From positions 24,448 to 88,447 of the forward strand of contig SVRG01000001.1 in assembly GCA_015064965.1 (NCBI GenBank): a DNA stretch of 64,000 bases, written 5' to 3'. The position numbers and the translations under genes are program-made. The DNA comes from Oscillospiraceae bacterium (GTDB taxonomy: Bacteria; Bacillota; Clostridia; Oscillospirales; CAG-272). Below, in pieces: positions 683-61,348 of the stretch (the first letter of the stretch is position 1; each line of letters opens with the position of its first letter). Below the pieces are notes generated by a model. The model saw only the letters and a list, made by a program, of their open reading frames with translations. It was not told the origin of the DNA and searched no databases.

Positions 683-708
683 GGTAATTCTCCTTTTATG
701 TTATTTTG

Positions 709-816
709 TTTTTTGGGCGGGTTTCCCGACCAAAAAACTCCTTAAAGGCTCGGCGGCGGTGAGCCGCACGCGAGTAATCGAGCCTCCCCACTTGAAAATG
801 TTTACATTTTCAAGTG
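709..816. repeat. Unclassified multi-hairpin intergenic element, copy A (argS-yebC spacer)
   Basis: Shares an ~83-nt core plus a positionally conserved flanking hairpin with 28192-28303. Three helices differ by paired (compensatory) substitutions. It starts 4 nt after the argS stop codon on the minus strand. Confidence 0.6.
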
Positions 817-820
817 ATAT

Positions 821-11486: not shown

Positions 11487-11530
11487 TTTTTTGAAGTCTC
11501 CTATTAAAAAATAGAGCCTTCCCGTTATTT

Positions 11531-11627
11531 CAGCGGGATGCGACATATGCACCGCGGCAAAATGCCTTCGTCCGCCTTGCAACTCCCCGTCAAGACGACA
11601 CTTCACGCGCATATGTCTACTCTGTGT
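11531..11627 (-). promoter_or_regulatory. THF (tetrahydrofolate) riboswitch, class I
   Basis: Minus strand AGAGUAGACAUAUGCGCGUGAAGUGUCGUCUUGACGGGGAGUUGCAAGGCGGACGAAGGCAUUUUGCCGCGGUGCAUAUGUCGCAUCCCGCUG. It follows block by block the E. siraeum THF aptamer as I remember it (AGAGUAG...CGCGU.AAGUGU...ACGAAG...GCGCGGUG...GCAUCCGCUC). Confidence 0.85.
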
Positions 11628-11661: not shown

Positions 11662-12603
11662 TCACTTCTCAAATCTTACGTCATTGCCGCAGAAAATGAG
11701 TGGCTTATATACTCCGAGCAAGCGGCTGAAAATTCTCTCGCCGTAGCGCTCGGAAAGTGCGCGCGCATCAAGATTTGTGCTGACTACAGTTGGATAGCCC
11801 TTGCAGATGCGCGTATCAATGACATTGTAAATAAACGACTCGGTGAAAGCACCCACGCCCTCTGTGCCAAGGTCGTCAATGATGAGCAGTTCTGCAGAAA
11901 AATATCTGTCAGTATCGCCCTCTCCCTTGAACTTGGCTCTCTCAAAATCGGAAACGAGATTGAGCGCCGAGGTGTAAAGCACATCGTAGCCGCGGTCAAT
12001 AACCGTTTTTGCGATCGCGCTTGAAAGGTGGGTTTTGCCAAGTCCTGTGCCGCCCATAAACAAAAGCGAGCCGCTCTTTGCATCAAAGTTTTGCGCATAA
12101 TTGCGGATGATATCAAAATTCTGCTCCATACGCGCACGGTCCTCGCCCTTGAAGTAGTCGAGCGAATAATTGTCAAAGCTCTGCTTGAAAATAAGCGCGC
12201 CAAGGCCGCTTGTTTCATAGCCTTTGAGCACAAGTGCGCGCTTGAAGCACTCGCACATTCTGCTCTCTACAAAACCGAGGTCCTTGCACTTTTCGCAATC
12301 GTATTTTACATCGCTGTAGTCCGCAGGATAACCTGCCGCACAAAGCAGTCTTGCCCTTGCCTCGCGCAAATATGCAGTATCACGCTTGATGCTCTCCATA
12401 CGTTTTGCAAGTTCTTCTTTGCCGCCAAGCGCCGCACCGAAAATGCGCGACGCGGTGGTAGCAAGCGCCGCGTCTATCTCGCCGACGCCTTCAACACGTG
12501 CCGCAAGCGCCGCCGCACGTGCCTCTGCCTCGGCGATTTTATCGAGATGCTTTTTTTCAAAAGCCTCGCGAAGTTCGTAGTAGTTTTTTGTGTTAAAACT
12601 CAT
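11662..12603 (-). CDS. dnaI: Helicase loader DnaI (DnaC/IstB-type AAA+ ATPase)
   Basis: 313 aa, N-terminal Cys cluster (CEKCKDLGFVESRMCEC), Walker A GGTGLGKTHL, Walker B LLIIDDLG. Paired with a DnaD-domain gene as in the B. subtilis dnaB-dnaI operon. Confidence 0.8.
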   Translation of the reverse strand: MSFNTKNYYELREAFEKKHLDKIAEAEARAAALAARVEGVGEIDAALATTASRIFGAALGGKEELAKRMESIKRDTAYLREARARLLCAAGYPADYSDVKYDCEKCKDLGFVESRMCECFKRALVLKGYETSGLGALIFKQSFDNYSLDYFKGEDRARMEQNFDIIRNYAQNFDAKSGSLLFMGGTGLGKTHLSSAIAKTVIDRGYDVLYTSALNLVSDFERAKFKGEGDTDRYFSAELLIIDDLGTEGVGAFTESFIYNVIDTRICKGYPTVVSTNLDARALSERYGERIFSRLLGVYKPLIFCGNDVRFEK

Positions 12604-14234: not shown

Positions 14235-14283
14235 TGTTTTGTCCTTTCAAAAAAAGAAAGTGAAAGTATTAAACAAGCCGTCG

Positions 14284-14302
14284 GGGCGATTATTAATCGC
14301 CC
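14284..14302. repeat. 19-bp perfect palindrome GGGCGATTATTAATCGCCC, copy 1 (nearer rex)
   Basis: 9-1-9 palindrome, identical to 14332-14350, centres 48 bp apart in the tsaD-rex spacer. Confidence 0.9.
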
Positions 14303-14331
14303 GAAAAGCTACCGATAGATGTTTTACAAAC

Positions 14332-14350
14332 GGGCGATTATTAATCGCCC
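14332..14350. repeat. 19-bp perfect palindrome GGGCGATTATTAATCGCCC, copy 2 (12 nt after the tsaD stop)
   Basis: Identical to 14284-14302. Each copy is preceded on the plus strand by a similar aca(a)Rc(c)g context. Confidence 0.9.
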
Positions 14351-14361
14351 ATACAGATTTG

Positions 14362-17680: not shown

Positions 17681-17768
17681 CGTTTCTCCCATAAAGATAT
17701 AATATAACGATTATATTATATAACTAATAGAGAAAAAAAGCAAGGAAAAGATAAATTAACACTTTATC

Positions 17769-20668: not shown

Positions 20669-20697
20669 TTGACAAAGCATTACGATACTGCTATAAT
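20669..20697 (+). promoter_or_regulatory. Consensus sigma-A promoter of rplJ-rplL
   Basis: TTGACA-17 nt-TATAAT. Confidence 0.8.
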
Positions 20698-20862
20698 GCT
20701 TGTGTTACCGAAGACAGCAGGTTACGGTAAAAGCATGTTTTGATGCTTTCCTGCCGAGGAATGTTTTATAAATATGACTATTTATGATCTTTCTCGGAAT
20801 CTTTCTGTCTTTCCGTAGAAAGATTTATTTTTTTGCAAAAGTTTAACGGAGGTGAAATTACT
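20698..20862 (+). promoter_or_regulatory. Ribosomal protein L10 leader (autoregulatory) with attenuator hairpin
   Basis: About 165-nt structured leader between a consensus promoter and rplJ. Terminator-like AATCTTTCT/AGAAAGATT + T9 at 20798-20834 lies just before the SD. Class assigned from position and architecture, not motif-matched. Confidence 0.6.
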
Positions 20863-24068: not shown

Positions 24069-24989
24069 TCACTTCTTCTTTCTTACAGCCAGAGCGCACC
24101 AATCGTTTTCTACCAGCTCATCAAATACTTCAAAGCCGTTTTCTGCAATGCACACTTCAACTTCCTCGCGGCGCGGGCAGATGATACCCGATGCGATAAG
24201 CACCGCGTCATCAGCCATATACTTTGAGATATCGGGCATCATGCGGATAATAATGTCCGCAACGATGTTTGCGGCAACAATATTGTATTTGCCGCCGGAA
24301 AGGTCAACACCTTTCAACAAATCGGAGACATCGCAGGTAATATTGTTAACACCGCTTGCCTCTATGTTCTCTCTCGCAACCTTTACCGCGGTGGGGTCAA
24401 TATCATATGCGGCGCAGTTTTTAGCGCCGAGCCGGGAGGCGCAAATTGACAAAATGCCGCTGCCTGTGCCAACGTCAAGCATTCTGTCGCCCTCTTTGAC
24501 ATATTTCTGAAGCATGGAGATAACAAGGCGTGTAGTTTCATGCGTACCGGTGCCAAATGCCATGCCGGGGTCCATTGTTACTGTAATTTCACCCTCGGCC
24601 GGAGTATACTCCTCCCATGCGGGAACAACTACAATTTTGCCAACCTTGATTGGGTGATAATACTTCTTCCAGGACTCTGCCCAGTCTTCCTCGCGGCATC
24701 CTACAGTTTCGATAGTGTACTCTATTCCGCTTGATGTAAGCTGTCCCTCAACAAATGCCTTTGCCTCGGCTACGCTTCTTGTTTCAGGGATGAACACCGA
24801 TACTGATGCCTTTGTTTTGTCGGCATTGAGCAGGCTTTCGTCAAGAAGTGCGCCGTACATTCCGTCGGTGGTAACATCGCTGAAGTCCTCAATGAAAAGT
24901 GAGTTTTCAACCATGCTCATTACCGCGCTTATGTTGTCAAGGTCCTTTGTCTTGCCGGTAACCTTGAGCTGTATCCATTGCATATCCAT
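24069..24989 (-). CDS. prmA: Ribosomal protein L11 methyltransferase
   Basis: 306 aa, SAM motif LDVGTGSGILSI, PrmA N-terminal domain, classic position after dnaJ. Confidence 0.9.
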   Translation of the reverse strand: MDMQWIQLKVTGKTKDLDNISAVMSMVENSLFIEDFSDVTTDGMYGALLDESLLNADKTKASVSVFIPETRSVAEAKAFVEGQLTSSGIEYTIETVGCREEDWAESWKKYYHPIKVGKIVVVPAWEEYTPAEGEITVTMDPGMAFGTGTHETTRLVISMLQKYVKEGDRMLDVGTGSGILSICASRLGAKNCAAYDIDPTAVKVARENIEASGVNNITCDVSDLLKGVDLSGGKYNIVAANIVADIIIRMMPDISKYMADDAVLIASGIICPRREEVEVCIAENGFEVFDELVENDWCALAVRKKK

Positions 24990-25070: not shown

Positions 25071-26219
25071 TCATTTAAACAAATCTGTGAATTTCTTAAA
25101 AAAGCTGTCCTTTTTGGATTTCACCTTGTCGCCGTAAGTTTTTGCAAGCTCTTCGAGAAGTTCTCTCTGCTTGGCGCTTGGATTTTTCGGCACGTCTACG
25201 TTCACAGTGATATAAAGATTGCCGCGATAAGAGGAGTTAACCCTTGTAATACCCTTGCCGCGAAGCGTGAACGTGGTATTTGTCTGCGTTCCCTCAGGGA
25301 TTGTAAACTTTTCCTTACCGTCAAGCGTGGGAATCTCGATTTCGGCACCGAGAACAGCCTCCCAATAATCTATCGGAACCTCACAGTAAATATCATTGCC
25401 GTCGCGTTCAAATACTTCGTGCGGCTTTACGCTGACTGCGATAATAAGGTCGCCGGCAGGACCGCCGTTGCGTCCCTCGTTACCCATGCCGGAGATTGAA
25501 ATGTTTTGACCGTTGTCAATTCCTGCAGGGATGGTAACCGAAAACTTCTTTGAAACCTTTACATAGCCTGTTCCGCGGCAATTTGTGCAAGGGTCCTTGA
25601 TGATTTTACCGCTTCCGCGGCACTCATCACAGGTCTGCATTGTCTGCATTACACCGAACATGGTACGTTGCTGAACGCGCACCTGTCCTGAGCCGCCGCA
25701 CTTTTTACAAGTTTCAACACCTGTTCCCTTTTTGGCACCGCTACCCTCGCAATCGGAGCATTTTTGCACTCTGCCAAAGCTTATATCCTTTTTGCAGCCG
25801 CGAACCGCCTCCTCAAAAGAAACGTTAAGGCGAACATAGATATCCTCGCCGCGCTGGGGTGCGTTGCGGCGATTTGTGCCGCCGCCAAAACCGCCAAAGC
25901 CTCCTCCGCCGCCGCCGAAGAACGATGAAAAGATATCGCCAAAGTCAAAGCCCTCAAAGCCGGCGCCGTATCCGCCGCCGGCACCGCCGTTTTCAAAAGC
26001 GGCATGGCCAAACTGGTCATATTTCGCCTTTTTTTCCTCATCGGACAAGATGGCATATGCCTCGTTTATCTCTTTAAACTTTTTTTCAGCCTCTGCATCG
26101 CCCGGATTTACGTCGGGGTGATACTTTTTGGCAAGTTTATAGTATGCTTTTTTTATCTCGGAAGCGCTCGCGCTTTTTTCAACGCCAAGCACCTCATAAT
26201 AATCTCTTTTTTCAGCCAT
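25071..26219 (-). CDS. dnaJ: Molecular chaperone DnaJ
   Basis: J-domain ([11 protein letters not shown]), G/F-rich region, four CxxCxGxG zinc motifs. Confidence 0.97.
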
Positions 26220-26285: not shown

Positions 26286-28142
<1,857 letters not shown>

Positions 28143-28191
28143 TTATTTATAGATAAATTTTTAATAAACAAACAATATATAATAAAATCTT

Positions 28192-28303
28192 GTTTGAAAG
28201 ACGGACATGCGCCGGCTTTCAAACTCCTTGAAGGCTCGGTCGCGGTCGGGCGACACGCGAGTGAACGAGCCACACCACTTTAAAATATTTGCATTTTAAA
28301 GTG
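28192..28303. repeat. Unclassified multi-hairpin intergenic element, copy B (grpE-dnaK spacer)
   Basis: Homologous to 709-816. It starts 2 nt after the grpE stop on the minus strand and shows compensatory differences in three helices. Confidence 0.6.
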
Positions 28304-28305
28304 AT

Positions 28306-28851
28306 TTAATTTGCGGTTTTGACCATCGCATAACGGATGACTCTTTCGCCGCGCTTGTATCCCTTTTGGAATACTTCTACAATTTCGCCCTCGCCGTATG
28401 CATCATCGTCCACGTGCATTACCGCGTTGTGAACATTTGGGTCAAATGTTTTGCACTCGATTTCTTCAACGCCGAGTTTTGCAAGGCTTTCGCTGAACGC
28501 TTTTGCCATCATGGCAATGCCCTCTGCCACCTTTTCATCACTTGCAAATGCTGCCGCGCGCTCTATATTGTCAAGCACGGGGAGAAATTCGTTTACGATA
28601 TCTGTGCAGGCATCGGAATAAACGCCCTCGCGCTCTGCCTTTGAGCGGCGGCGGAAATTTTCATACTCTGCCGCAACGCGGAGATACTGCTCCTTCTGCT
28701 CTGCAAGTGCCTTTTCGCTGTCTTCAAGCTGTTTTTTGAGCGCTTCTATCTCTTTTTCGTGTTTCTTGTCGCTCTTTGATTTTTTCGCCGCCTTTTCCTC
28801 TGCTGCGGTTTCGGCGGTTTCTTCTACCGGTTCCTTCTTTTCTTCTGCCAT
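28306..28851 (-). CDS. grpE: Nucleotide exchange factor GrpE
   Basis: 181 aa, Lys/Glu-rich coiled N-terminus, GrpE core (RVAAEYENFRRR...). Confidence 0.95.
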   Translation of the reverse strand: MAEEKKEPVEETAETAAEEKAAKKSKSDKKHEKEIEALKKQLEDSEKALAEQKEQYLRVAAEYENFRRRSKAEREGVYSDACTDIVNEFLPVLDNIERAAAFASDEKVAEGIAMMAKAFSESLAKLGVEEIECKTFDPNVHNAVMHVDDDAYGEGEIVEVFQKGYKRGERVIRYAMVKTAN

Positions 28852-29918
28852 CAGTTTTTACCTTCTTTCGGACTTTCAAGCATTTTAAGCTCTGTGTTTA
28901 TCATTTCGCCAACCGATTCTGCAAGCGCATCAACAGTTGCCATAACATTTGCATAATCCATGCGGCACGGGCCGATAATGCCTATTGCACCAACCACTTT
29001 GCCGTTCTTTTTTATCTTTTTAAATACAAGCGCCGAATCGCTCATGTTATCCGAGCGGTTTTCGCTGCCGATTATTACGCCGACACCGTCGCCGTCAAGA
29101 CCGGAAACGCTATCGAGTATGCTGTCCTTATTTTCAATTGCGCCGAGCAGTCCGCGGAGCTTGCCGACATCGGAAAACTCAGGGTACGAAAGCAATCGGT
29201 CAACGCCGTCAACCTTAACCTCGCCGCCGCTCTGCTCCTCCATACCGCTGTAAATTTCCTTCATAGCCGCAGACAAAAGCCGCGCTTCGCTGCCCATTTC
29301 TGCCTCTGCCTGCATCATCACCGGAAGTGTTATCTCCGTGAGCGTTCTGCCTGCGATATATGTGTTAAGCGTGCTTGCAAGGTGCGCCGCATCTGTCGGA
29401 AGCACATCAAAATCAAGACGGATATTGCGCGTTTTTGCGCTGCCACTGCCCGAAAGCATTACAAGCACAAGAGTTCTGCTGTCAAAATACATCACCTCAA
29501 AGCGGATTATCTTTGACATATCGCTTCTCGGTTTTACCGCAATCGCGGTATAGTTTGTCATGCTGCCCGCAAGGCGCGATGCCTCTGCAAGGATTTTATC
29601 AAGTTCATGCTGCTTGCCGCGAAGCTGCATTGCCATAACCTCGGTTTCAGCCTTGGTTTTTTTGTACTCGCCGGCAAGACAGTCAACATAAAAGCGATAT
29701 CCAAGTTCGCTTGGCACTCTGCCCGCCGAGGTGTGAGGCTGTTCAAGGTAGCCGAGCGATTCAAGCTCTGCCATCTCGTTTCTTATAGTGGCAGGTGAGC
29801 AGTTTGGCATCATATTTTGCGCAATGTACTTGGAGCCAACAGGTTCGCCGCCCTTGACATATGCTTCTACTACCGCGCGCAAAATCTGCATTTTGCGTTT
29901 GGAGAGATTGTATTCCAT
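28851..29918 (-). CDS. hrcA: Heat-inducible transcription repressor HrcA
   Basis: 355 aa, N-terminal wHTH (RKMQILRAVVEAYVKGGEPVGSK), CIRCE operator upstream. Confidence 0.95.
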   Translation of the reverse strand: MEYNLSKRKMQILRAVVEAYVKGGEPVGSKYIAQNMMPNCSPATIRNEMAELESLGYLEQPHTSAGRVPSELGYRFYVDCLAGEYKKTKAETEVMAMQLRGKQHELDKILAEASRLAGSMTNYTAIAVKPRSDMSKIIRFEVMYFDSRTLVLVMLSGSGSAKTRNIRLDFDVLPTDAAHLASTLNTYIAGRTLTEITLPVMMQAEAEMGSEARLLSAAMKEIYSGMEEQSGGEVKVDGVDRLLSYPEFSDVGKLRGLLGAIENKDSILDSVSGLDGDGVGVIIGSENRSDNMSDSALVFKKIKKNGKVVGAIGIIGPCRMDYANVMATVDALAESVGEMINTELKMLESPKEGKN

Positions 29919-29934: not shown

Positions 29935-29961
29935 TTAGCACTCTTTTAGAGCGAGTGCTAA
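29935..29961. promoter_or_regulatory. CIRCE operator (HrcA binding site)
   Basis: TTAGCACTC-ttttagagc-GAGTGCTAA, a perfect match to the consensus TTAGCACTC-N9-GAGTGCTAA, 16 nt upstream of the hrcA ATG. Confidence 0.95.
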
Positions 29962-31391: not shown

Positions 31392-31421
31392 AAACGGCAT
31401 CGGATATTCCCGATGCCGTTT
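31392..31421 (-). terminator. Rho-independent terminator
   Basis: aaacggcatcgg-atattc-ccgatgccgttt with T7 on the minus strand. Confidence 0.85.
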
Positions 31422-31426
31422 GCTTA

Positions 31427-31819
31427 TTATTTAACAAGAGTTGCAGTCGAAGTAGCCGCATCCCACTTGATGTTTGCATTGTCAACGCCGAGAGCGTTTG
31501 CAATTGCTCTTACAGGGAGGTATGTGCGGTTGTTTTCGATGATTGCAGGAGAGTCAAGCTCAACAGTCTGACCGTTTACAGTCATGTTGGGCTTATCAAT
31601 TGTAACAACGATAGTAACATCGTTGTTGGAAAGAGTTGCGGTTCTTGTTTCCGCATCCCACTTGATACCGTCATTGCTTACACCGAAAGCGTTTGCAAGG
31701 AAACGTACAGGAAGCATTGTGCGGTTGTTGCGGTTAATGGGAGCTGCATCAAGAGTTTCTGCCTTGCCGTTGATGTAGGCAGTCTTTGAGCCGATGGTGA
31801 GCTTAACCTCGGTCTTTTC
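31427..31819 (-). repeat. 393-bp shared C-terminal module, copy 1
   Basis: Encodes EKTEVKLTIGSKTAYING...ATLVK. By hand count, 24 mismatches over 393 nt versus 33285-33677 and 58 over 393 versus 44495-44887. Confidence 0.9.
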
Positions 31820-33226
31820 AGCAGACTCGCCGAAGGTGGAAACTACAAGATTGTCCAAAGCGGTGGTATTGAGGTTGTTGAGACCGCTTGCCTCGGTACC
31901 GCGGAGACGGAAGCCGAATGTACCTGCGCTCCAGAGGTCGTGCTTCTGGCACCAGTTCCAGAGAAGCTTGCCGCTCTTGAGGTCGGTAATGGTAATCTGG
32001 ATAAGATCACCCTTTACCGCCGCCTGCATATGGATATTTGCGCCGGGCTGCATAATAGCAGAAGAAACCTTGATGTTGCCTTCAAGCCACTTGCCGTCCG
32101 ACTTGCCTGCGCCGATTGCGCCGAGGGTGCCGTTATTGGAAACGAACATATGATATCCCAAGAAGCCGGACTCGGATGTTTCGATTACATTTGCATAGTC
32201 GGAACGGATAATGATACCGCCCTGTGTCTGTACATTGTAGATATCAACATCAACAACATAGTCCTTGAGGTTTACAAGTTCTTCTTCGCCACCGTAAAGA
32301 ATGTAGGGGTGAGTGAGTGCGCCTTTAGCGGAGAGATAAAGCTGACCGCCGTAAACTGCCCATGTACCGCCGTACTGAGCAAAATCAGCAATGCTCTTTG
32401 CATTGTCAAAGGTGTTTTCGTAAACCTTTACAAGGTTTGATGTATCAATGGAAGTGGTGGAGTTTACTGCAGGAGTAACAGTAGCGGTGCCGCCCTTAAT
32501 AGTTACATCGTTAGCAGTGGTAACCTTGAGGTTGTCAAAGTAAGCCTCGCCCGCAGAGTAAGCATCGTTTGCCTTCATACCTGCACGCATACGGAGACCG
32601 AAGGTACCGTCAGTACGTACAAAGTCACTTGCGCTTGTGCCGATTGTGTATGTGTAGTCATAAACAGTCTTGTTGTTGTCAAGGTTTGTCATAAGGACAT
32701 GGATCTTGTCGCCCTTAACGGTAACTTTGATGTGAACATTGGAGCTGATATTACAGCTGCCGGTCTTGCCTACGTTGATATTGCCCTTGTATGCCTCGTT
32801 AACCATTTCGTCGGTTGCGCTGCCAAGTGCACCGCAGTTTGCATTGTTGGAAATGAATGCAAGATAACCTGCAAATCCGCTGACATTGTGTGTATTTGCT
32901 TTGTCATTCACACGGAAAACAACACCGCCTGCGGTCTGGATATTCATGTAGTCAACTTCTACAATATAGTCAGTGAGTTTTTCGCTTGTCTTATAAATGA
33001 TATGTGCGAAAGAGGTGTCAACGTTTTTCTTAGGTGCTTCTGAGAAAAAGTTTTCAGTGATGTAAAGACCGCCGTCCTTGATTTCCCACTGCTGAACATA
33101 CTGCTCAAAGTCATTAAGAGTGGCAGGATTTGAAAAATCGTTTTCGTAAATTACAGTCTCTGCTGCAAATGCGCTGAGGGTGAGGAGCGCAAGCAAAAGC
33201 GAAACTAAAAGTAAAAATTTTTTCAT
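31427..33226 (-). CDS. Secreted protein: 2 x DUF1080/LamG-like (3-keto-disaccharide-hydrolase-like) domains + C-terminal double copper-amine-oxidase-N-terminal-like (wall-binding) module
   Basis: Start at MKKFLLLVSLLL (SD ggaga). Signal peptide ending AFA-AE. The WEIKDGGLYIT and GGVVFR type blocks occur twice. C-terminal 130 aa YINGKAETLDAAPINRNNRTMLPVRFLANAFG... is repeated twice. Confidence 0.7.
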   Translation of the reverse strand: MKKFLLLVSLLLALLTLSAFAAETVIYENDFSNPATLNDFEQYVQQWEIKDGGLYITENFFSEAPKKNVDTSFAHIIYKTSEKLTDYIVEVDYMNIQTAGGVVFRVNDKANTHNVSGFAGYLAFISNNANCGALGSATDEMVNEAYKGNINVGKTGSCNISSNVHIKVTVKGDKIHVLMTNLDNNKTVYDYTYTIGTSASDFVRTDGTFGLRMRAGMKANDAYSAGEAYFDNLKVTTANDVTIKGGTATVTPAVNSTTSIDTSNLVKVYENTFDNAKSIADFAQYGGTWAVYGGQLYLSAKGALTHPYILYGGEEELVNLKDYVVDVDIYNVQTQGGIIIRSDYANVIETSESGFLGYHMFVSNNGTLGAIGAGKSDGKWLEGNIKVSSAIMQPGANIHMQAAVKGDLIQITITDLKSGKLLWNWCQKHDLWSAGTFGFRLRGTEASGLNNLNTTALDNLVVSTFGESAEKTEVKLTIGSKTAYINGKAETLDAAPINRNNRTMLPVRFLANAFGVSNDGIKWDAETRTATLSNNDVTIVVTIDKPNMTVNGQTVELDSPAIIENNRTYLPVRAIANALGVDNANIKWDAATSTATLVK

Positions 33227-33246
33227 ATTTTTCTCCATTCATTCGC

Positions 33247-33271
33247 AAAAGGGCTACAATGTAGCCCTTTT
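33247..33271 (-). terminator. Rho-independent terminator between the two paralogs
   Basis: aaaagggctac-aat-gtagccctttt. Confidence 0.7.
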
Positions 33272-33284
33272 GACGTTTTAATGA

Positions 33285-33677
33285 TTATTTAACAAGAGTT
33301 GCAGTCGAAGTAGCCGCATCCCATGCGATGTTTGCATTGTCAACGCCGAGAGCGTTTGCAATTGCTCTTACAGGGAGGTATGTGCGGTTGTTTTCGATGA
33401 TTGCAGGAGAGTCAAGCGCAACAGTCTTGCCGTTTACAGTCATATTGGGCTTGTCAATTGTAACAACGATAGTAACATCCTTGTTGGTAAGGGTTGCAGT
33501 TCTGGTTGCCGCATCCCACTTGATACCGTCATTGCTTACGCCGAATGCGTTTGCAAGGAAGCGTACAGGAAGCATTGTGCGGTTGTTGCGGTTGATGGGA
33601 GCTGCATCAAGAGTTTCTGCCTTGCCGTTGATGTAGGCAGTCTTTGAGCCAATAGTGAGCTTGACTTCGGTCTTTGC
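33285..33677 (-). repeat. 393-bp shared C-terminal module, copy 2
   Basis: See 31427-31819. Confidence 0.9.
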
Positions 33678-35084
33678 CGCTGCAGCACCGAAGGTGGAAA
33701 CTACAAGGTTGTCAAAAGCGGTGGTATTGAGGTTGTTGAGACCTGCGTTTGTAGCCTTGCTGCGGAGACGGAAGCCGAATGTACCCTTTGTCCAAAGGTC
33801 ATTCTTTTCGCACCAGTGCCAGAGAACCTTGCCGCTTGCCTTATCGGTGATGATAAGCTGAACGAGGTCACCTTTTACTGCCATCTGAAGGTGGATGTTA
33901 GAGCCGGTCTTAAGGCAAGCCTTGGAAACTTCAATGTTGCCGTCGAGCCACTTGCCGTCTGCCTTACCTGCGCCGATTGCACCAAGAGTACCGTCATTGG
34001 AGACGAAGCCCATGTAACCCATGAAGCCGTCATCGGTAGCGCCGGTAACGTTTGCAAAGTCGGAACGCATGATAAGACCGCCCTGTGTCTGGGTGTTGTA
34101 CATATCAACGTCTACAACATAGTCGGTAAGCTCGGTGAGCTTTGCATCGCCGCCGTAGAGAATGTAGGACTGTGCGCCCTCGGTACCTGCGGAGAGGTAA
34201 AGCTGACCGCCGTAAACTGCCCATGTACCTCTGTACTGGATAAAGTCAGCAATGCTCTTTGCATTGTCAAAGGTGTTTTCATAAACCTTTACAAGGTTTG
34301 ATGTATCAATAGTAACGGTGGGCTTTGCCGCGGGAGTGGTTGTACCCTGGTTGCCGCCTGCGATATTAACTTCGTTTGCAGTAGTAACCTTAAAGTTGTC
34401 AAAATAAGCCTCGCCTGCGGAGTAAGCATCATTTGCCTTCATGCCGGCACGCATACGGAGACCGAAGGTACCTTCTTTCCAGCCAGCGTCGCCGTCGCTT
34501 GTGCCGGTGATGTAGGCGTAATCGTAAACGGTCTTGCCGTTGTCGAGGTTGGTAACGAGAACATGAATCTTTTCGCCCTTAACGGTAACCTTGATGTGAA
34601 CGTTGGAGCTGATGTTCATGTTGCCGGTCTTACCGACATTGATATTGCCCTTCCAGCCGTCTGCATTGTCTGCAGAGCCGAGAGCTGCGCAGTTTGCGTT
34701 GTTTGCAATAAATGCAACATAACCGCGGAAGCCGTTCTGTGCATCGGTAACTGCATTCTGGTCAGCGCGGAAAATGATACCGCCCGCTGTCTGAACGTTC
34801 ATGTAGTCAACCTCAAGGATGTAATCCTTGTATGCCTGATTTGCCTGATAAATAATGTGGGCAAATGATGTGTCAACAGATGCACCGTTAGTAGTGGTGA
34901 ACTGGTCTGTGATGTAAAGACCGCCGTCCTTGATTTCCCAAACCATACGATACTGCTTGAAATCGCTGAGAGTGGAAGGATCGGAGAAGTCATTTTCGTA
35001 AATCACGGTTTCTGCCGCGAATGTGCCAATAGCAAGTGCGCAAACGAGCATCACCATGCAAAGGCCGAGTAAAAACTTTTTCAT
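33285..35084 (-). CDS. Secreted protein, full-length paralog of 31427-33226
   Basis: 599 aa, signal peptide (FA-AE), same two DUF1080-like domains and the same C-terminal module. Confidence 0.7.
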   Translation of the reverse strand: MKKFLLGLCMVMLVCALAIGTFAAETVIYENDFSDPSTLSDFKQYRMVWEIKDGGLYITDQFTTTNGASVDTSFAHIIYQANQAYKDYILEVDYMNVQTAGGIIFRADQNAVTDAQNGFRGYVAFIANNANCAALGSADNADGWKGNINVGKTGNMNISSNVHIKVTVKGEKIHVLVTNLDNGKTVYDYAYITGTSDGDAGWKEGTFGLRMRAGMKANDAYSAGEAYFDNFKVTTANEVNIAGGNQGTTTPAAKPTVTIDTSNLVKVYENTFDNAKSIADFIQYRGTWAVYGGQLYLSAGTEGAQSYILYGGDAKLTELTDYVVDVDMYNTQTQGGLIMRSDFANVTGATDDGFMGYMGFVSNDGTLGAIGAGKADGKWLDGNIEVSKACLKTGSNIHLQMAVKGDLVQLIITDKASGKVLWHWCEKNDLWTKGTFGFRLRSKATNAGLNNLNTTAFDNLVVSTFGAAAAKTEVKLTIGSKTAYINGKAETLDAAPINRNNRTMLPVRFLANAFGVSNDGIKWDAATRTATLTNKDVTIVVTIDKPNMTVNGKTVALDSPAIIENNRTYLPVRAIANALGVDNANIAWDAATSTATLVK

Positions 35085-44463: not shown

Positions 44464-44494
44464 AAAAGGCATCCTTTCGGATGCCTTTTATTTT
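44464..44494. terminator. Bidirectional rho-independent terminator (murA / convergent surface-protein gene)
   Basis: aaaaggcatcc-tttc-ggatgcctttt flanked by A6 and T-runs. Confidence 0.85.
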
Positions 44495-44887
44495 TTATTT
44501 TACAAGAGTTGCTGTATTTGTTGCCGCATCCCACTTGATGTTCTCGTTCTTCACGCCGAGAGCGTTTGCAATCGCACGTACGGGGAGATATGTGCGGTTA
44601 TTTTCAATAATCGCGGGAGAGTCAAGCGCAACTGCAAGACCGTTAACGGTCATGGAGGGCGCGTCAATCTTTACAACGATAGTGGTTTCGCTGTTGGAAA
44701 GTGTTGCGGTTCTTGTAGCCGCATCCCACTTGATACCGTCATTGCTTACGCCAAAAGCGTTTGCAAGAAAACGAACAGGAAGCATGGTGCGGTTATTGCG
44801 GTTGATGGGAGCCGCATCAAGAGTTTCTGCCTTGCCGTTGATGTATGCGGTCTTGGAGCCGATGGTGAGTTTAACCTCGGTCTTTTC
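44495..44887 (-). repeat. 393-bp shared C-terminal module, copy 3 (fused to an unrelated N-terminus)
   Basis: Similarity begins abruptly at the codons for EKTEVKL (44887). Upstream of that the protein is unrelated to the DUF1080 paralogs. Confidence 0.9.
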
Positions 44888-50020: not shown

Positions 50021-50144
50021 AAACACACCTCCTATATATGTATCTTAATTATTATACTACATAAAAAACCAAATGTAAATGAAATTTAAGTGAAAATTTG
50101 ATGTAACAGTAAATTATAGATTATCTTTTTATCTGTCATCCTGA

Positions 50145-50240
50145 ACGCAGTGAAGGATCTGCGAGCCGTAGGCTCGTCTTCGGGAGAAAAACCTTGATTG
50201 CATCAAGGTTTTCAGATTCTTCGCATTCGCTCAGAATGAC
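50145..50240 (-). repeat. TIR-bounded hairpin-rich intergenic repeat, copy 2 (inverted orientation)
   Basis: gtcatcctgaacgcagtgaaggatc...gattcttcgcattcgctcagaatgac. A left-side extension up to ~50279 abuts or overlaps the hslO stop codon. Confidence 0.85.
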
Positions 50241-50277
50241 ACGTGTAGGTACTTAGCATTGTACGCTAACCTATAAT

Positions 50278-51159: not shown

Positions 51160-51211
51160 ACTATTCTCCTTGAAAAAATTAATGTTTATGGGGATTGTTG
51201 AAATCCACCCT

Positions 51212-51307
51212 GTCATTCTGAGCGAATGCGAAGAATCTGCGAACCGCAGGTTCGTCTTAGAAAAACCGCGAGGCGGTTTTCGGATCCTTCACTGCGTTCA
51301 GGATGAC
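51212..51307 (+). repeat. TIR-bounded hairpin-rich intergenic repeat, copy 3 (arms in + orientation, core in the opposite order)
   Basis: gtcattctgagcgaatgcgaagaatc-[GC hairpin cgaacc/ggttcg]-[gaaaaaccgc/gcggttttc]-ggatccttcactgcgttcaggatgac. Confidence 0.85.
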
Positions 51308-51328
51308 GTATAAAAAACAAACATTAAT

Positions 51329-52087
51329 TTATTTCCTTTTCGCTGTAAAATAAAATCTCTCGGTATCCTTTTCCACAGGTGAGCCGTCGGTATCACCGTC
51401 TACACAAACGACCTCAAAACCGCATTTTTCAAGCAATTTTTCAACCTCGCGGAGGGTAAAGCAATACTCGCGCTCATAATCGTCAAAGCGAGAATATGTG
51501 CCGTCCTCGTTTTCAGTGAAAACACTTGTATAAAAGTCGCAGATGCGGCTTTCTTTATCATAAATGTTCTGCCAACCGCAGTAAATACCCTCATCTTCAA
51601 GCACATATGCGTTTGTGCCGTAAATATTTTTGAATTTATACGGCGAATTCAGGTCAAAAATAAAGAGTCCGCCGGGCTCAAGATAATTGTGAACAAGGTC
51701 AAAAACCTTTTTAAGGTCGGCTTTTGAGTCGAGGTGATTGAGACTGTCAAGGCAGCTGACAACCGCCTGAACAGTGCCGTAAAGCTCAAAAGAACACATA
51801 TCCTGACAAAGGAACAGTATGTTTTCTGCCCTGCCTGCCTCCTGCGCCTTTGCACGCGCAATTTCAAGCATGTCGGGAGAAAGGTCGATGCCCGTCATGT
51901 CATAGCCCCTTTTGTCAAGCTCCATGGTCATCGTACCAGTACCGCAGCAAAGGTCAAGCACAAGCGACACGTCTATATCCGAGTGCGTTTTTATTTTACC
52001 GTCTATGTAGTCCGCCCACGCACCGTAATCAAGGTCGGCGTTGAGTATATCATACACCTTTGAAAGGGCAAAATAGTTGTCGGTCAT
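51329..52087 (-). CDS. Class I SAM-dependent methyltransferase
   Basis: Start at the ATG at 52087 (SD ggaggtg 6 nt upstream). SAM motif VLDLCCGTG. Substrate unknown. Confidence 0.75.
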   Translation of the reverse strand: MTDNYFALSKVYDILNADLDYGAWADYIDGKIKTHSDIDVSLVLDLCCGTGTMTMELDKRGYDMTGIDLSPDMLEIARAKAQEAGRAENILFLCQDMCSFELYGTVQAVVSCLDSLNHLDSKADLKKVFDLVHNYLEPGGLFIFDLNSPYKFKNIYGTNAYVLEDEGIYCGWQNIYDKESRICDFYTSVFTENEDGTYSRFDDYEREYCFTLREVEKLLEKCGFEVVCVDGDTDGSPVEKDTERFYFTAKRK

Positions 52088-52257
52088 GTGTGCCACCTCC
52101 TATTCTTATTTATTCTAATATATTTACATTAAAAAGTAAACACTTTTTTATGCCAAAAAATTAACAAATTATGTTGATATTCTTAAAATAATGTGATATA
52201 TTAAAAGGTGGATAAATTTTGTTTATTACAAATTATATATAAAGGAGTGTACATCTA

Positions 52258-57641: not shown

Positions 57642-57643
57642 CT

Positions 57644-57749
57644 GTCATCCTGAACGAATGTGAAGGATCTGCACGGCGAAGCCGTGTCTCTTTTAGAAAA
57701 ACCTTGTATGCACAAGGTTTTCAGATTCTTCGCTCACGCTCAGAATGAC
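57644..57749 (-). repeat. TIR-bounded hairpin-rich intergenic repeat, copy 4 (inverted orientation)
   Basis: gtcatcctgaacgaatgtgaaggatc...gattcttcgctcacgctcagaatgac. It starts 2 nt after the DUF2877 stop. Confidence 0.85.
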
Positions 57750-57765
57750 GGATTGTATTACGTCA

Positions 57766-57793
57766 AAAAAGGCACTCATAAGAGTGCCTTTTT
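57766..57793. terminator. Bidirectional rho-independent terminator
   Basis: aaaaaggcactc-ataa-gagtgccttttt. Confidence 0.8.
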
Positions 57794-61197: not shown

Positions 61198-61218
61198 GAT
61201 AGTTAATATGGTCCACTT

Positions 61219-61325
61219 GTCATTCTGAGCAAATGCGAAGAATCTGAAAACCTTGATGAAATCAAGGTTTTTCTTAAAGGAGACACGCCTGCGGCGTGCA
61301 GATCCTTCACTGCGTTCAGGATGAC
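61219..61325 (+). repeat. TIR-bounded hairpin-rich intergenic repeat, copy 5
   Basis: gtcattctgagcaaatgcgaagaatc...gatccttcactgcgttcaggatgac. The left boundary box (taatatgg..ccactt) lies only ~7 nt from the nth start codon. Confidence 0.85.
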
Positions 61326-61348
61326 AATTAGAAAGATAAATTTATAAT

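Follow-up and report, generated by a model that had tools for sequence, protein, structure and literature searches.

The spacer between grpE and dnaK in the heat-shock operon of an Oscillospiraceae bacterium (contig SVRG01000001.1 of GenBank assembly GCA_015064965.1, positions 24,448 to 88,447 of the forward strand) very probably holds a copy of a dispersed, structured mobile repeat and not a dedicated heat-shock regulator. The window, by which we mean this whole stretch of 64,000 nucleotides, carries the operon on its minus strand in the order hrcA-grpE-dnaK-dnaJ-prmA (open reading frame (ORF) calls and Pfam), with the grpE-dnaK spacer at 28131-28305 (175 nt). The element in this spacer, here referred to as copy B, belongs to a non-coding family of three-hairpin repeats with a core of ~115 nt, or ~136 nt with an AT-rich tail; members of the family are scattered across the genomes of a clade of uncultured Clostridia from gut and rumen (metagenome-assembled genomes, MAGs, of Eubacteriales). 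A second copy, copy A, follows argS in the same window. The family is without an Rfam match and nothing like it was met in the literature searched, and it is apparently previously undescribed.

The fold of the element was derived with RNAalifold from 32 distinct copies aligned from related genomes, and a 67-copy alignment was fitted to a covariance model; the 32-copy set behaves alike. The parts of the two window copies and their immediate surroundings are as follows.

28306..28308, minus strand: grpE stop codon TAA, with a single A before the element (ORF and sequence)
28189..28304, minus strand: core of copy B (P1, P2, linker and P3), a full-length covariance-model match of 115.2 bits, E 1e-24
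28275..28304, minus strand: P1 of copy B, a 13-bp AT-rich hairpin, TCACTTTAAAATG-CAAA-TATTTTAAAGTGG (fold and covariation)
28232..28271, minus strand: P2 of copy B (RNAalifold and pair counts)
28266-28271 with 28232-28238, minus strand: outer stem of P2, GGCUCG/CGAGCC
28255-28265, minus strand: 5' bulge of P2, 11 nt, with the conserved CUCGCG inside
28239-28254, minus strand: inner stem-loop of P2, with a CYC(N)ACCG loop
28223..28229, minus strand: AAGGAGU box, similar to a Shine-Dalgarno (SD) sequence, AAGGA unpaired and GU opening P3 (67-copy consensus; pairs 141/205 and 142/204)
28192..28224, minus strand: P3 hairpin of copy B, GUUUGAAAGCCGGCGCAUGUCCGUCUUUCAAAC (fold and covariation)
28169..28191, minus strand: AT-rich 3' tail of the copy B insert, AAGATTTTATTATATATTGTTTG (comparison of filled and empty sites)
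28131..28168, minus strand: native dnaK leader, TTTATTAAAAATTTATCTATAAATAAGGAGATTTTATC (aligned with the orthologous spacers of L001, L002, L074, L075 and L076)
705..817, minus strand: copy A, a covariance-model match of 114.6 bits, between the argS stop codon (821-823) and a yebC-like gene

Copy B begins 1 nt after the grpE TAA, and its P3 stem is followed by ACAAGA with no U-tract; the dnaK SD lies at 28138-28145. Copy A (P1 788-817, box 737-743, P3 708-738) begins 3 nt after the TAA of argS (821-2515) and precedes a gene of the yebC/TACO1 family (Pfam) with its ATG at 679-681. A blastn search of the copy B spacer against the window returned one other match, at 735-818 (82% identity over 85 nt, same orientation), and an unfiltered covariance-model run over the window found no third copy, the next matches being the palindromic P1 on the opposite strand only. 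Both spacers fold far better than shuffled sequence (z = -4.6 for copy B and -6.3 for copy A). A sequence-only reading of the window had placed the element at 28192-28303, which is right to within 3 nt, and had correctly recognized the second copy. The layout it described for both copies, a stop codon, then the element, then the SD of the next gene, was also confirmed, with ~45 nt (copy B) and ~12 nt (copy A) between P3 and that SD. The AAGGAGT box that it called invariant is present in both window copies; across the family it is AAGGAGT in 55 of 67 copies and AAGGTGT in 10.

Comparison of the spacer among related genomes, as the sequence-only reading had proposed, revealed a presence/absence polymorphism at the grpE-dnaK junction. 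Eight orthologous hrcA-grpE-dnaK-dnaJ loci were compared (L001-L004 and L074-L077), with GrpE homologues at most 90% identical to that of the window and all from uncultured Clostridia. The three junctions were occupied as follows.

grpE/dnaK: P1-P3 element in the window (175 nt) and in L003 (161 nt)
grpE/dnaK: a different hairpin module of ~35 nt, GGTCATCCTGAGCG...GGGATCTC, in L075 and L077
grpE/dnaK: no insertion, spacer of 36-46 nt, in L001, L002, L004, L074 and L076
dnaK/dnaJ: P1-P3 element in L003 (two copies, one reversed); no insertion in all others
dnaJ/prmA: P1-P3 element in L002 and L075
dnaJ/prmA: a different repeat (another family member) in L074
dnaJ/prmA: no insertion in the window, L001, L003 and L004; an extra ORF in L077

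The spacer of the window, already judged unusually long from its sequence, is long by comparison with the relatives that have no insertion, and the native leader TTTATTAAAAATTTATCTATAAATAAGGAG is kept to the right of every grpE/dnaK insertion, as it is in the relatives without the element. From these alignments we infer that copy B is a lineage-specific insertion of ~136 nt (28169-28304) that stretched a ~44-nt spacer to 175 nt, the direction being assigned by parsimony. Nucleotide identity of dnaK to the window is 90.5% in L075, 90.1% in L001, 87.7% in L074 and 82.5% in L003, and the family members nearest to copy B lie at unrelated loci (L066, 83%; L024, 82%), with the L003 copy below 73%. 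Since L003 is the more distant genome and its copy is dissimilar, the simplest reading is two arrivals at grpE/dnaK rather than inheritance, and the window and L003 copies are likely independent insertions. The ~35-nt module of L075 (5181-5261) and L077 (6305-6383), GGTCATCCTGAGCGCAGTCGAGGGATCTC, sits at exactly the junction of copy B.

The argS-yebC junction has a comparable history. Copy A has orthologues in L005 and L200 (ArgS 84%) and, judged by this sharing, is the older of the two window copies. In the closest relative found (L198, ArgS 96%), an unrelated 154-nt repeat, GAAAGCGTTCTTTCTT...GGTTCTGAC, occupies the site of copy A (11696-11849), and the same cargo recurs in an element of the L074 dnaJ-prmA spacer that is bounded by terminal inverted repeats (TIRs). 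The spacer of L199 has yet another filler, and that of L201 (76%) is empty at 18 nt. One repeat thus seems to take the place of another at a constant position among very close lineages, and because the same junctions hold varied fillers, the post-stop positions of grpE-dnaK and argS-yebC can be read from the alignments as hot spots with turnover among several small repeat types. Filled and empty sites of this kind are handy as lineage markers for these uncultured Clostridia.

Beyond the orthologous loci, a pattern based on P1 was scanned over one genome per species and recovered 69 stretches in ~9 species-level MAGs, with 16-23 in each of three assemblies. The carriers are labelled Eubacteriales, Clostridia or Lachnospiraceae bacterium and come from ruminant and other gut samples; a match in Kordiimonas was due to chance and covered P1 only. 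Many copies are found at contig ends because repeats break assemblies, and the family in this way fragments gut and rumen MAGs. The covariance model adds copies with a different P1 sequence. When a P2/linker pattern was run over metagenomes, 15 of 120 stretches were true members by the covariance model, several of them from human gut; the remainder were mostly chance matches, and many of the non-matching contigs bear soil-type sample names. P1 of the metagenome copies reads TCAGTCGAAAACC...GGTTTTCGACTGG and differs from the window P1 by four compensated pairs. A viral copy with complete P1-P3 was found on an IMG/VR contig (L203, 8850-8965) within a phage head-gene module, where it starts 0 nt after the TAA of an unnamed ORF preceding the major head protein gene (phrog_14242), with the portal gene upstream. 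Copies on the human-gut contigs L154/L161 and L196 share the same left flank (gene end ...gagaaataaagaa) and have different right flanks, which suggests recombination between copies or chimeric assembly at the repeat.

The family fold consists of three hairpins, P1, P2 and P3, with the invariant linker UUUAAGGAGU between P2 and P3. P1 is a 13-bp AT-rich hairpin starting with UCAC; P2 combines an outer stem with an 11-12-nt 5' bulge containing CUCGCG and an inner stem ending in a CUC(N)ACCG loop; and P3, opened by the last two bases (GU) of the linker, is long, with a lower stem of A/U tracts and an upper CGG/CCG stem. Across the 67 copies 97.2% of cells are paired, and both-sided changes occur in 23 of 36 base pairs, including 8 of the 13 pairs of P1. 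The 408 doubly changed cells compare with 126 in column shuffles, none of 500 shuffles reaching 408, and pairing falls to about 38-52% when the 3' partners are slid by 1-3 columns. Compensatory changes are present in all four helices, and the unpaired motifs are the most conserved parts of the element. Position 4 of P1 covaries with position 27 (C-G in 56 copies, G-C in 10 and A-U in 1). Covarying stems together with conserved unpaired motifs would reflect constraint on a folded single strand, either RNA or the DNA substrate of a mobilising enzyme. Some copies have an extra module of ~37 nt in the P2 bulge, or a larger P3 loop, and these differ even between the orthologous L018 and L007 copies. 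About half of the family has an A6/U6, terminator-like form of P3, with no clear link to operon context. A pseudoknot of the AAGGAGU box with ACUC of the bulge or CUCACC of the loop was considered and rejected, as neither shows covariation and the AAGGUGU variant breaks the first while improving the second only in part. Searches of Rfam 15 gave no match to the element in the window at gathering score, and nothing relevant at E<=10 for 27900-28600 or for a composite copy.

The core exists in two forms, a naked form lacking TIRs, to which copies A and B belong, and a TIR-bounded form. In many JAZNOM, JAZQEH, JAFTXX and JAZQHV copies the same core lies between TIRs of 15-19 nt, TAAATTAAWGTTTAY...RTAAACWTTAATTTA. 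These copies have no orientation bias (left-hand gene co-directional in 13, divergent in 17), and for nine or more of them the TAA at the end of the TIR doubles as the stop codon of a flanking gene. The same TIRs flank other cargo, including GTAG-tagged palindromes and GTCATYCTGAGCG-type hairpins, and a TIR-bounded relative at L033 6440-6600 has P1, including TCAC, beside the TIR together with different cargo. A search for a parent insertion sequence (IS) through the shared TIR in the ~0.5 Mb of fetched loci, which are pieces of 2-21 kb around matches, returned only other short cargo modules, and an all-against-all megablast of these loci showed synteny and no long repeated element. For the L052 copy, an empty site was sought in L040, where the site holds a different TIR-bounded repeat.

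Several further sequences in the window and its relatives touch on this sister form. A second repeat family, with hairpins of the form GTCATYCTGARCG...GAAGRATC, is present in the window at 51175-51331, with related pieces at 2623-2748, 50120-50246, 57643-57766 and 61214-61339. The element at 51175-51331 is bounded by AAAATTAATGTTTAT / ACAAACATTAATTTA, the same TIRs that flank P1-P3 cores in relatives; its terminal TTA is the stop codon of the minus-strand ORF 51329-52096, and its other end is a few nucleotides from the SD of the next gene. At 17752-17768 the window has a lone TIR-like TAAATTAACACTTTATC; the corresponding position of the syntenic JAZNOM contig (L022 7747-7910) is filled by a complete P1-P3 element with its TIRs, and the lone sequence could be what is left of such an element or a separate insertion. 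At 14275-14359 lie two REP-like, GC-rich palindromes, GGGCGATTATTAATCGCCC; similar GTAG-tagged palindromes are the TIR cargo in relatives, e.g., at L033 6440-6600. An extra module of ~70 nt, GGCTTCCCCCTTGGGGGAAGCTGTCAGCGGAGCTGACTGATGAGGGG..., is found between P3 and the right TIR at L014 2214-2306, L002 13777-13870 and several JAZQEH loci. A hammerhead reading of the extra module containing CUGAUGAG in JAZQEH and L002 copies was rejected, as it has no Rfam match and its core misfits when checked by hand.

Naked copies start at TCA 0-10 nt after a co-directional stop codon in at least 24 of ~33 cases, and a few others follow terminators. An element that inserts directly after stop codons, which the sequence-only reading had offered as its alternative, is supported by this spacing, by the presence/absence polymorphism, by the many dispersed copies and by the phage copy. 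Copies A and B have no TIR; they begin with TCACTT just downstream of the stop codon and finish with an AT-rich tail, and tails of the type ACARAATTTTATTATA, variable in length, are common to other naked copies. No direct repeat or target duplication was found at the filled and empty grpE/dnaK, dnaK/dnaJ and argS/yebC junctions. At two independent junctions, empty sites keep TCA at the very place where P1 has its first three bases in filled sites. At grpE/dnaK these read TAAATCAG|TTTATT (L001, L074) and TAATCAG (L076), and at dnaK/dnaJ the empty TAATCAC|TAAAAC (L077) compares with the filled TAATCAC|TTCAAAATG... (L003). The segment that is present or absent therefore seems, from these alignments, to begin just after TCA, which would be either a target or the leftover of a loss; retention of TCA(C/G) was compared at two sites only, and the P1 stem itself includes this TCA. 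Most copies have an A immediately before TCA. The junctions suggest that the element inserts in a fixed orientation and without duplicating its target, 3' of an A-rich-TCA motif, in a way that resembles the insertion of hairpin-ended single-strand transposons.

A number of observations weigh against a mobile repeat as the explanation for copy B. The naked form, having neither TIR nor target duplication and a ragged 3' boundary, fits no well-defined transposition mechanism, and no transposase or other mobilising gene was identified in the fetched pieces of 2-21 kb. The case for insertion rather than loss draws on parsimony and on the dissimilarity of the copies. The evidence for a strand preference in the pairing is modest (96 G-U against 11 A-C cells), with 86 of the G-U cells at two positions, and strong purifying selection on the structure and on the three unpaired motifs suggests that the core acts beyond neutral DNA. 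The stop-codon adjacency is also partly forced, because short operon spacers leave only stop-adjacent room that spares the next SD. A conservative null let the element insert with equal probability at any point of the original spacer, once 18 nt had been set aside for the ribosome binding site and 12 nt for the tail. Against it, Fisher's combined p was 0.07 over 25 copies; a hand-combined per-copy p of ~1e-4 was obtained for 12 copies with more than 5 nt of room, a subset picked after seeing the data. The stop-codon bias is real, and less dramatic than it appears.

In the operon, the element would be co-transcribed within the hrcA-grpE-dnaK-dnaJ mRNA, and transcription would read through from grpE into dnaK, as expected where there is no terminator or promoter signature and P3 has no U-tract. 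Because the grpE stop codon abuts P1, the terminating ribosome would have to open part of this hairpin. Hairpins placed directly after a stop codon and followed by an SD-like AAGGAG box may be tolerable inside operons, and could have a mild stabilising or insulating effect on the cistrons on either side. If it acts as REP, bcr and STAB-SD sequences do (see below), the element might protect the RNA next to grpE and keep a 30S subunit in place upstream of dnaK. A generic effect at the RNA level, on stability, processing or ribosome binding at the AAGGAG box, is possible, and the strong covariation hints at it; no start codon is conserved downstream of the box.

The competing explanation that survives best is that the core is a portable RNA module selected in 3'-untranslated region (UTR) and intercistronic positions, with P1 and P2 blocking 3'-to-5' decay of the upstream cistron. 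We consider it possible, though well short of probable. We give about the same modest credence to its extension by analogy with STAB-SD, in which the exposed AAGGAG box would bind 30S subunits without initiation and so protect the downstream RNA or prime its translation. Both proposals are compatible with mobility. AAGGAG and AAGGUG are both complementary to the anti-SD of 16S rRNA. The compensatory changes in every helix and the conservation of unpaired CUCGCG, CUC(N)ACCG and UUUAAGGAGU are as a functional RNA would have them; naked copies are co-directional with the upstream gene, and copy A differs from its L005 orthologue mainly in hairpin loops. The Firmicute repeats bcr1-bcr3 offer a precedent: they are transcribed as part of UTRs and of the spacers inside operons, and for bcr3 there is a correlation with decay rate (PMC3446304). 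However, TIR-bounded copies persist in both orientations, seven related operons have no element at grpE-dnaK, and in the closest relative a different repeat has taken the place of copy A, without any indication that the core is required there. Neither a pseudoknot nor an alternative pairing is supported.

A more specific proposal concerns how the naked form moves, namely as single-stranded DNA handled by an HUH/Y1-type enzyme (IS200/IS605-like, or like the REP-associated tyrosine transposases, RAYTs) or a similar one. This we regard as unlikely, and we rate equally low the target rule that goes with it, by which insertion would occur in one orientation and without duplication 3' of A-rich-TCA(C/G), the flanking TCAN pairing with N'UGG of the element to complete P1. 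The junctions lacking TIRs and direct repeats, and the hairpins at both ends, are in its favour. All copies start with TCA, and its presence in empty sites at two junctions has by our own estimate a chance of ~1/64 each; the covariation of positions 4 and 27 and the A preceding TCA also agree with the rule. Against it, the fetched pieces yielded no Y1 or HUH gene, the right end is not conserved (TTGTTTG, TTTGTG, ATAAC), and TCA could equally be a part of the element left behind by deletion. In L033 the adjacency of P1 and its TCAC to the TIR means that P1 may belong to the TIR end. In known IS200/IS605 elements, moreover, the target lies outside the hairpin. In its fullest and more doubtful form, the naked P1-P3 would be an undescribed non-autonomous mobile element that targets by completing its own first hairpin (TCAN with N'UGG), in one orientation and without duplication, directly after stop codons, and that carries hairpins and a non-initiating SD box which keep operons working or tune cistron ratios. 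If this were true, gut Clostridia and their phages would share a portable intercistronic element that has spread among them.

A cis-regulatory RNA dedicated to the dnaK operon is very unlikely, whether conceived as a thermosensor, as an attenuator or partial terminator setting the grpE:dnaK ratio, or as a processing site. The remaining features of the operon are as follows.

28851-29918, minus strand: hrcA (ORF, Pfam)
28306-28851, minus strand: grpE (ORF, GrpE Pfam match)
26286-28130, minus strand: dnaK (ORF, Pfam)
25071-26219, minus strand: dnaJ (ORF, Pfam)
24069-24989, minus strand: prmA (ORF, Pfam)
29935-29961, no strand assigned: perfect CIRCE (controlling inverted repeat of chaperone expression), TTAGCACTC-N9-GAGTGCTAA, upstream of hrcA; context and not a part of the element

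A promoter-like site lies upstream of hrcA at 30001-29973. Copy B does sit between cistrons whose ratio matters and folds stably, and transcripts of the B. subtilis dnaK operon are processed. But seven of the eight related operons lack the element at grpE-dnaK, and the core is also found behind argS, phage head-module genes and many unrelated genes, and in its TIR-bounded form it occurs in both orientations as cargo; a dedicated heat-shock role is not supported by this distribution. A scan for promoter- and terminator-like sites found none inside copy B on the operon strand, P3 of this copy, lacking a U-tract, does not look like a terminator, and no Rfam family matches. The first proposal of the sequence-only reading, an intercistronic function such as a processing or stability determinant or a partial terminator, is accordingly not supported as a role dedicated to this operon, and its statement that the element is not a second CIRCE was upheld: the grpE-dnaK spacer holds none, and the CIRCE at 29935-29961 is the sole match in the window within 3 mismatches. 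The long grpE-dnaK spacer should not be annotated as a new heat-shock signal. A small peptide read from the AAGGAG box, from ATGTCCGTCTTTCAAACA... 15 nt on in copy B (a 15-codon ORF), is hardly credible: many copies have an ATG in the P3 loop (GCAUGUCCG), but copy A and copies with GGGRAACCC, CACGCC or CACAGCC loops have none, 15 nt is a poor spacing between SD and ATG, the start codon falls within a stem-loop that covaries, and this small ORF is conserved in neither frame nor length.

With a mobile repeat as the preferred reading, the family is closest in kind to bcr1-type, REP (repetitive extragenic palindrome)/BIME (bacterial interspersed mosaic element), BOX and MITE (miniature inverted-repeat transposable element) sequences. 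A literature search on stop-codon-adjacent MITEs in Clostridia found nothing specific. The Firmicute repeat bcr1 is likewise non-coding, of ~150 nt and multi-copy, with a distribution that varies between close relatives (PMC3184786, PMC3446304); it is transcribed within UTRs and operon spacers, and compensatory changes keep a multi-hairpin fold in both families (PMC3184786, PMC3446304). In a comparison made without sequence alignment, bcr1 differs in having 5-bp direct repeats and two stem-loops, as opposed to no duplication and three hairpins here. bcr1 is not reported to have an SD-like box or to lie next to stop codons, and its host clade is another.

REPs, too, are extragenic hairpins, often placed in 3' UTRs or between cistrons, are co-transcribed and form mosaics with other motifs. 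REP/BIME sequences stabilise upstream mRNA (PMC3184786), and each REP is a single GC-rich, imperfect palindrome 20-40 nt long that bears GTAG or CGTC as its tag (PMC3733652). The present element is instead ~115 nt long, with three hairpins, an AT-rich P1 and no GTAG tag, and no RAYT was identified in the fetched pieces. According to Liang and Deutscher, REPs within ~15 nt of a stop codon reportedly affect termination and trans-translation. Classical MITEs (Correia/nemis, RUP, Nezha) resemble the family in being small, non-autonomous, folded and multi-copy, with filled and empty orthologous sites, and the sister form has true TIRs of 15-19 nt in a frame that also carries other cargo; copies A and B, unlike MITEs, have neither TIRs nor target-site duplications, and no parent IS with matching TIRs was found in the fetched pieces.

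The BOX elements of Streptococcus pneumoniae are modular (boxA, boxB, boxC) and intergenic, lack classical TIRs and form stable RNA structures near gene ends. There is no correspondence in sequence or modules with the present family, compared by eye only, and BOX is not reported to have an SD-like box or to keep a strict co-orientation after stop codons. Palindrome-associated transposable elements (PATEs) derived from IS200/IS605 share with the naked form the absence of TIRs and target duplication, orientation specificity and hairpins near both ends, and a short conserved motif immediately 5' of the element is a candidate for a further likeness; this candidate target, TCA, however, lies here within the stem of P1, the right end shows no conservation and no TnpA/TnpB partner is known, so that PATEs are a lead only. 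STAB-SD of B. thuringiensis cryIIIA is an AAGGAG-type sequence near the 5' end of a Firmicute transcript; it does not initiate translation, it stabilises the mRNA, and its function has been demonstrated. In the present family the box has an internal place, with a hairpin of the mobile repeat on either side, and is only a candidate for such a role.

With a strongly structured family that lands at the same operon junctions in different lineages, and there sometimes displaces other small repeats or is displaced by them, one can study how such repeats target or survive at stop-codon junctions, and whether a mobile SD-like box affects the fate of mRNA.

Apart from the repeats, the window contains a tetrahydrofolate (THF) riboswitch at 11529-11626 (minus strand, 85 bits) and a ribosomal protein L10 leader at 20690-20839 (plus strand, 62 bits), both above the Rfam gathering score. 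Tandem paralogous genes are found at 31419-35049 and 44487-44786, comprising two units of ~1.86 kb at 74-93% identity and a third, partial relative.

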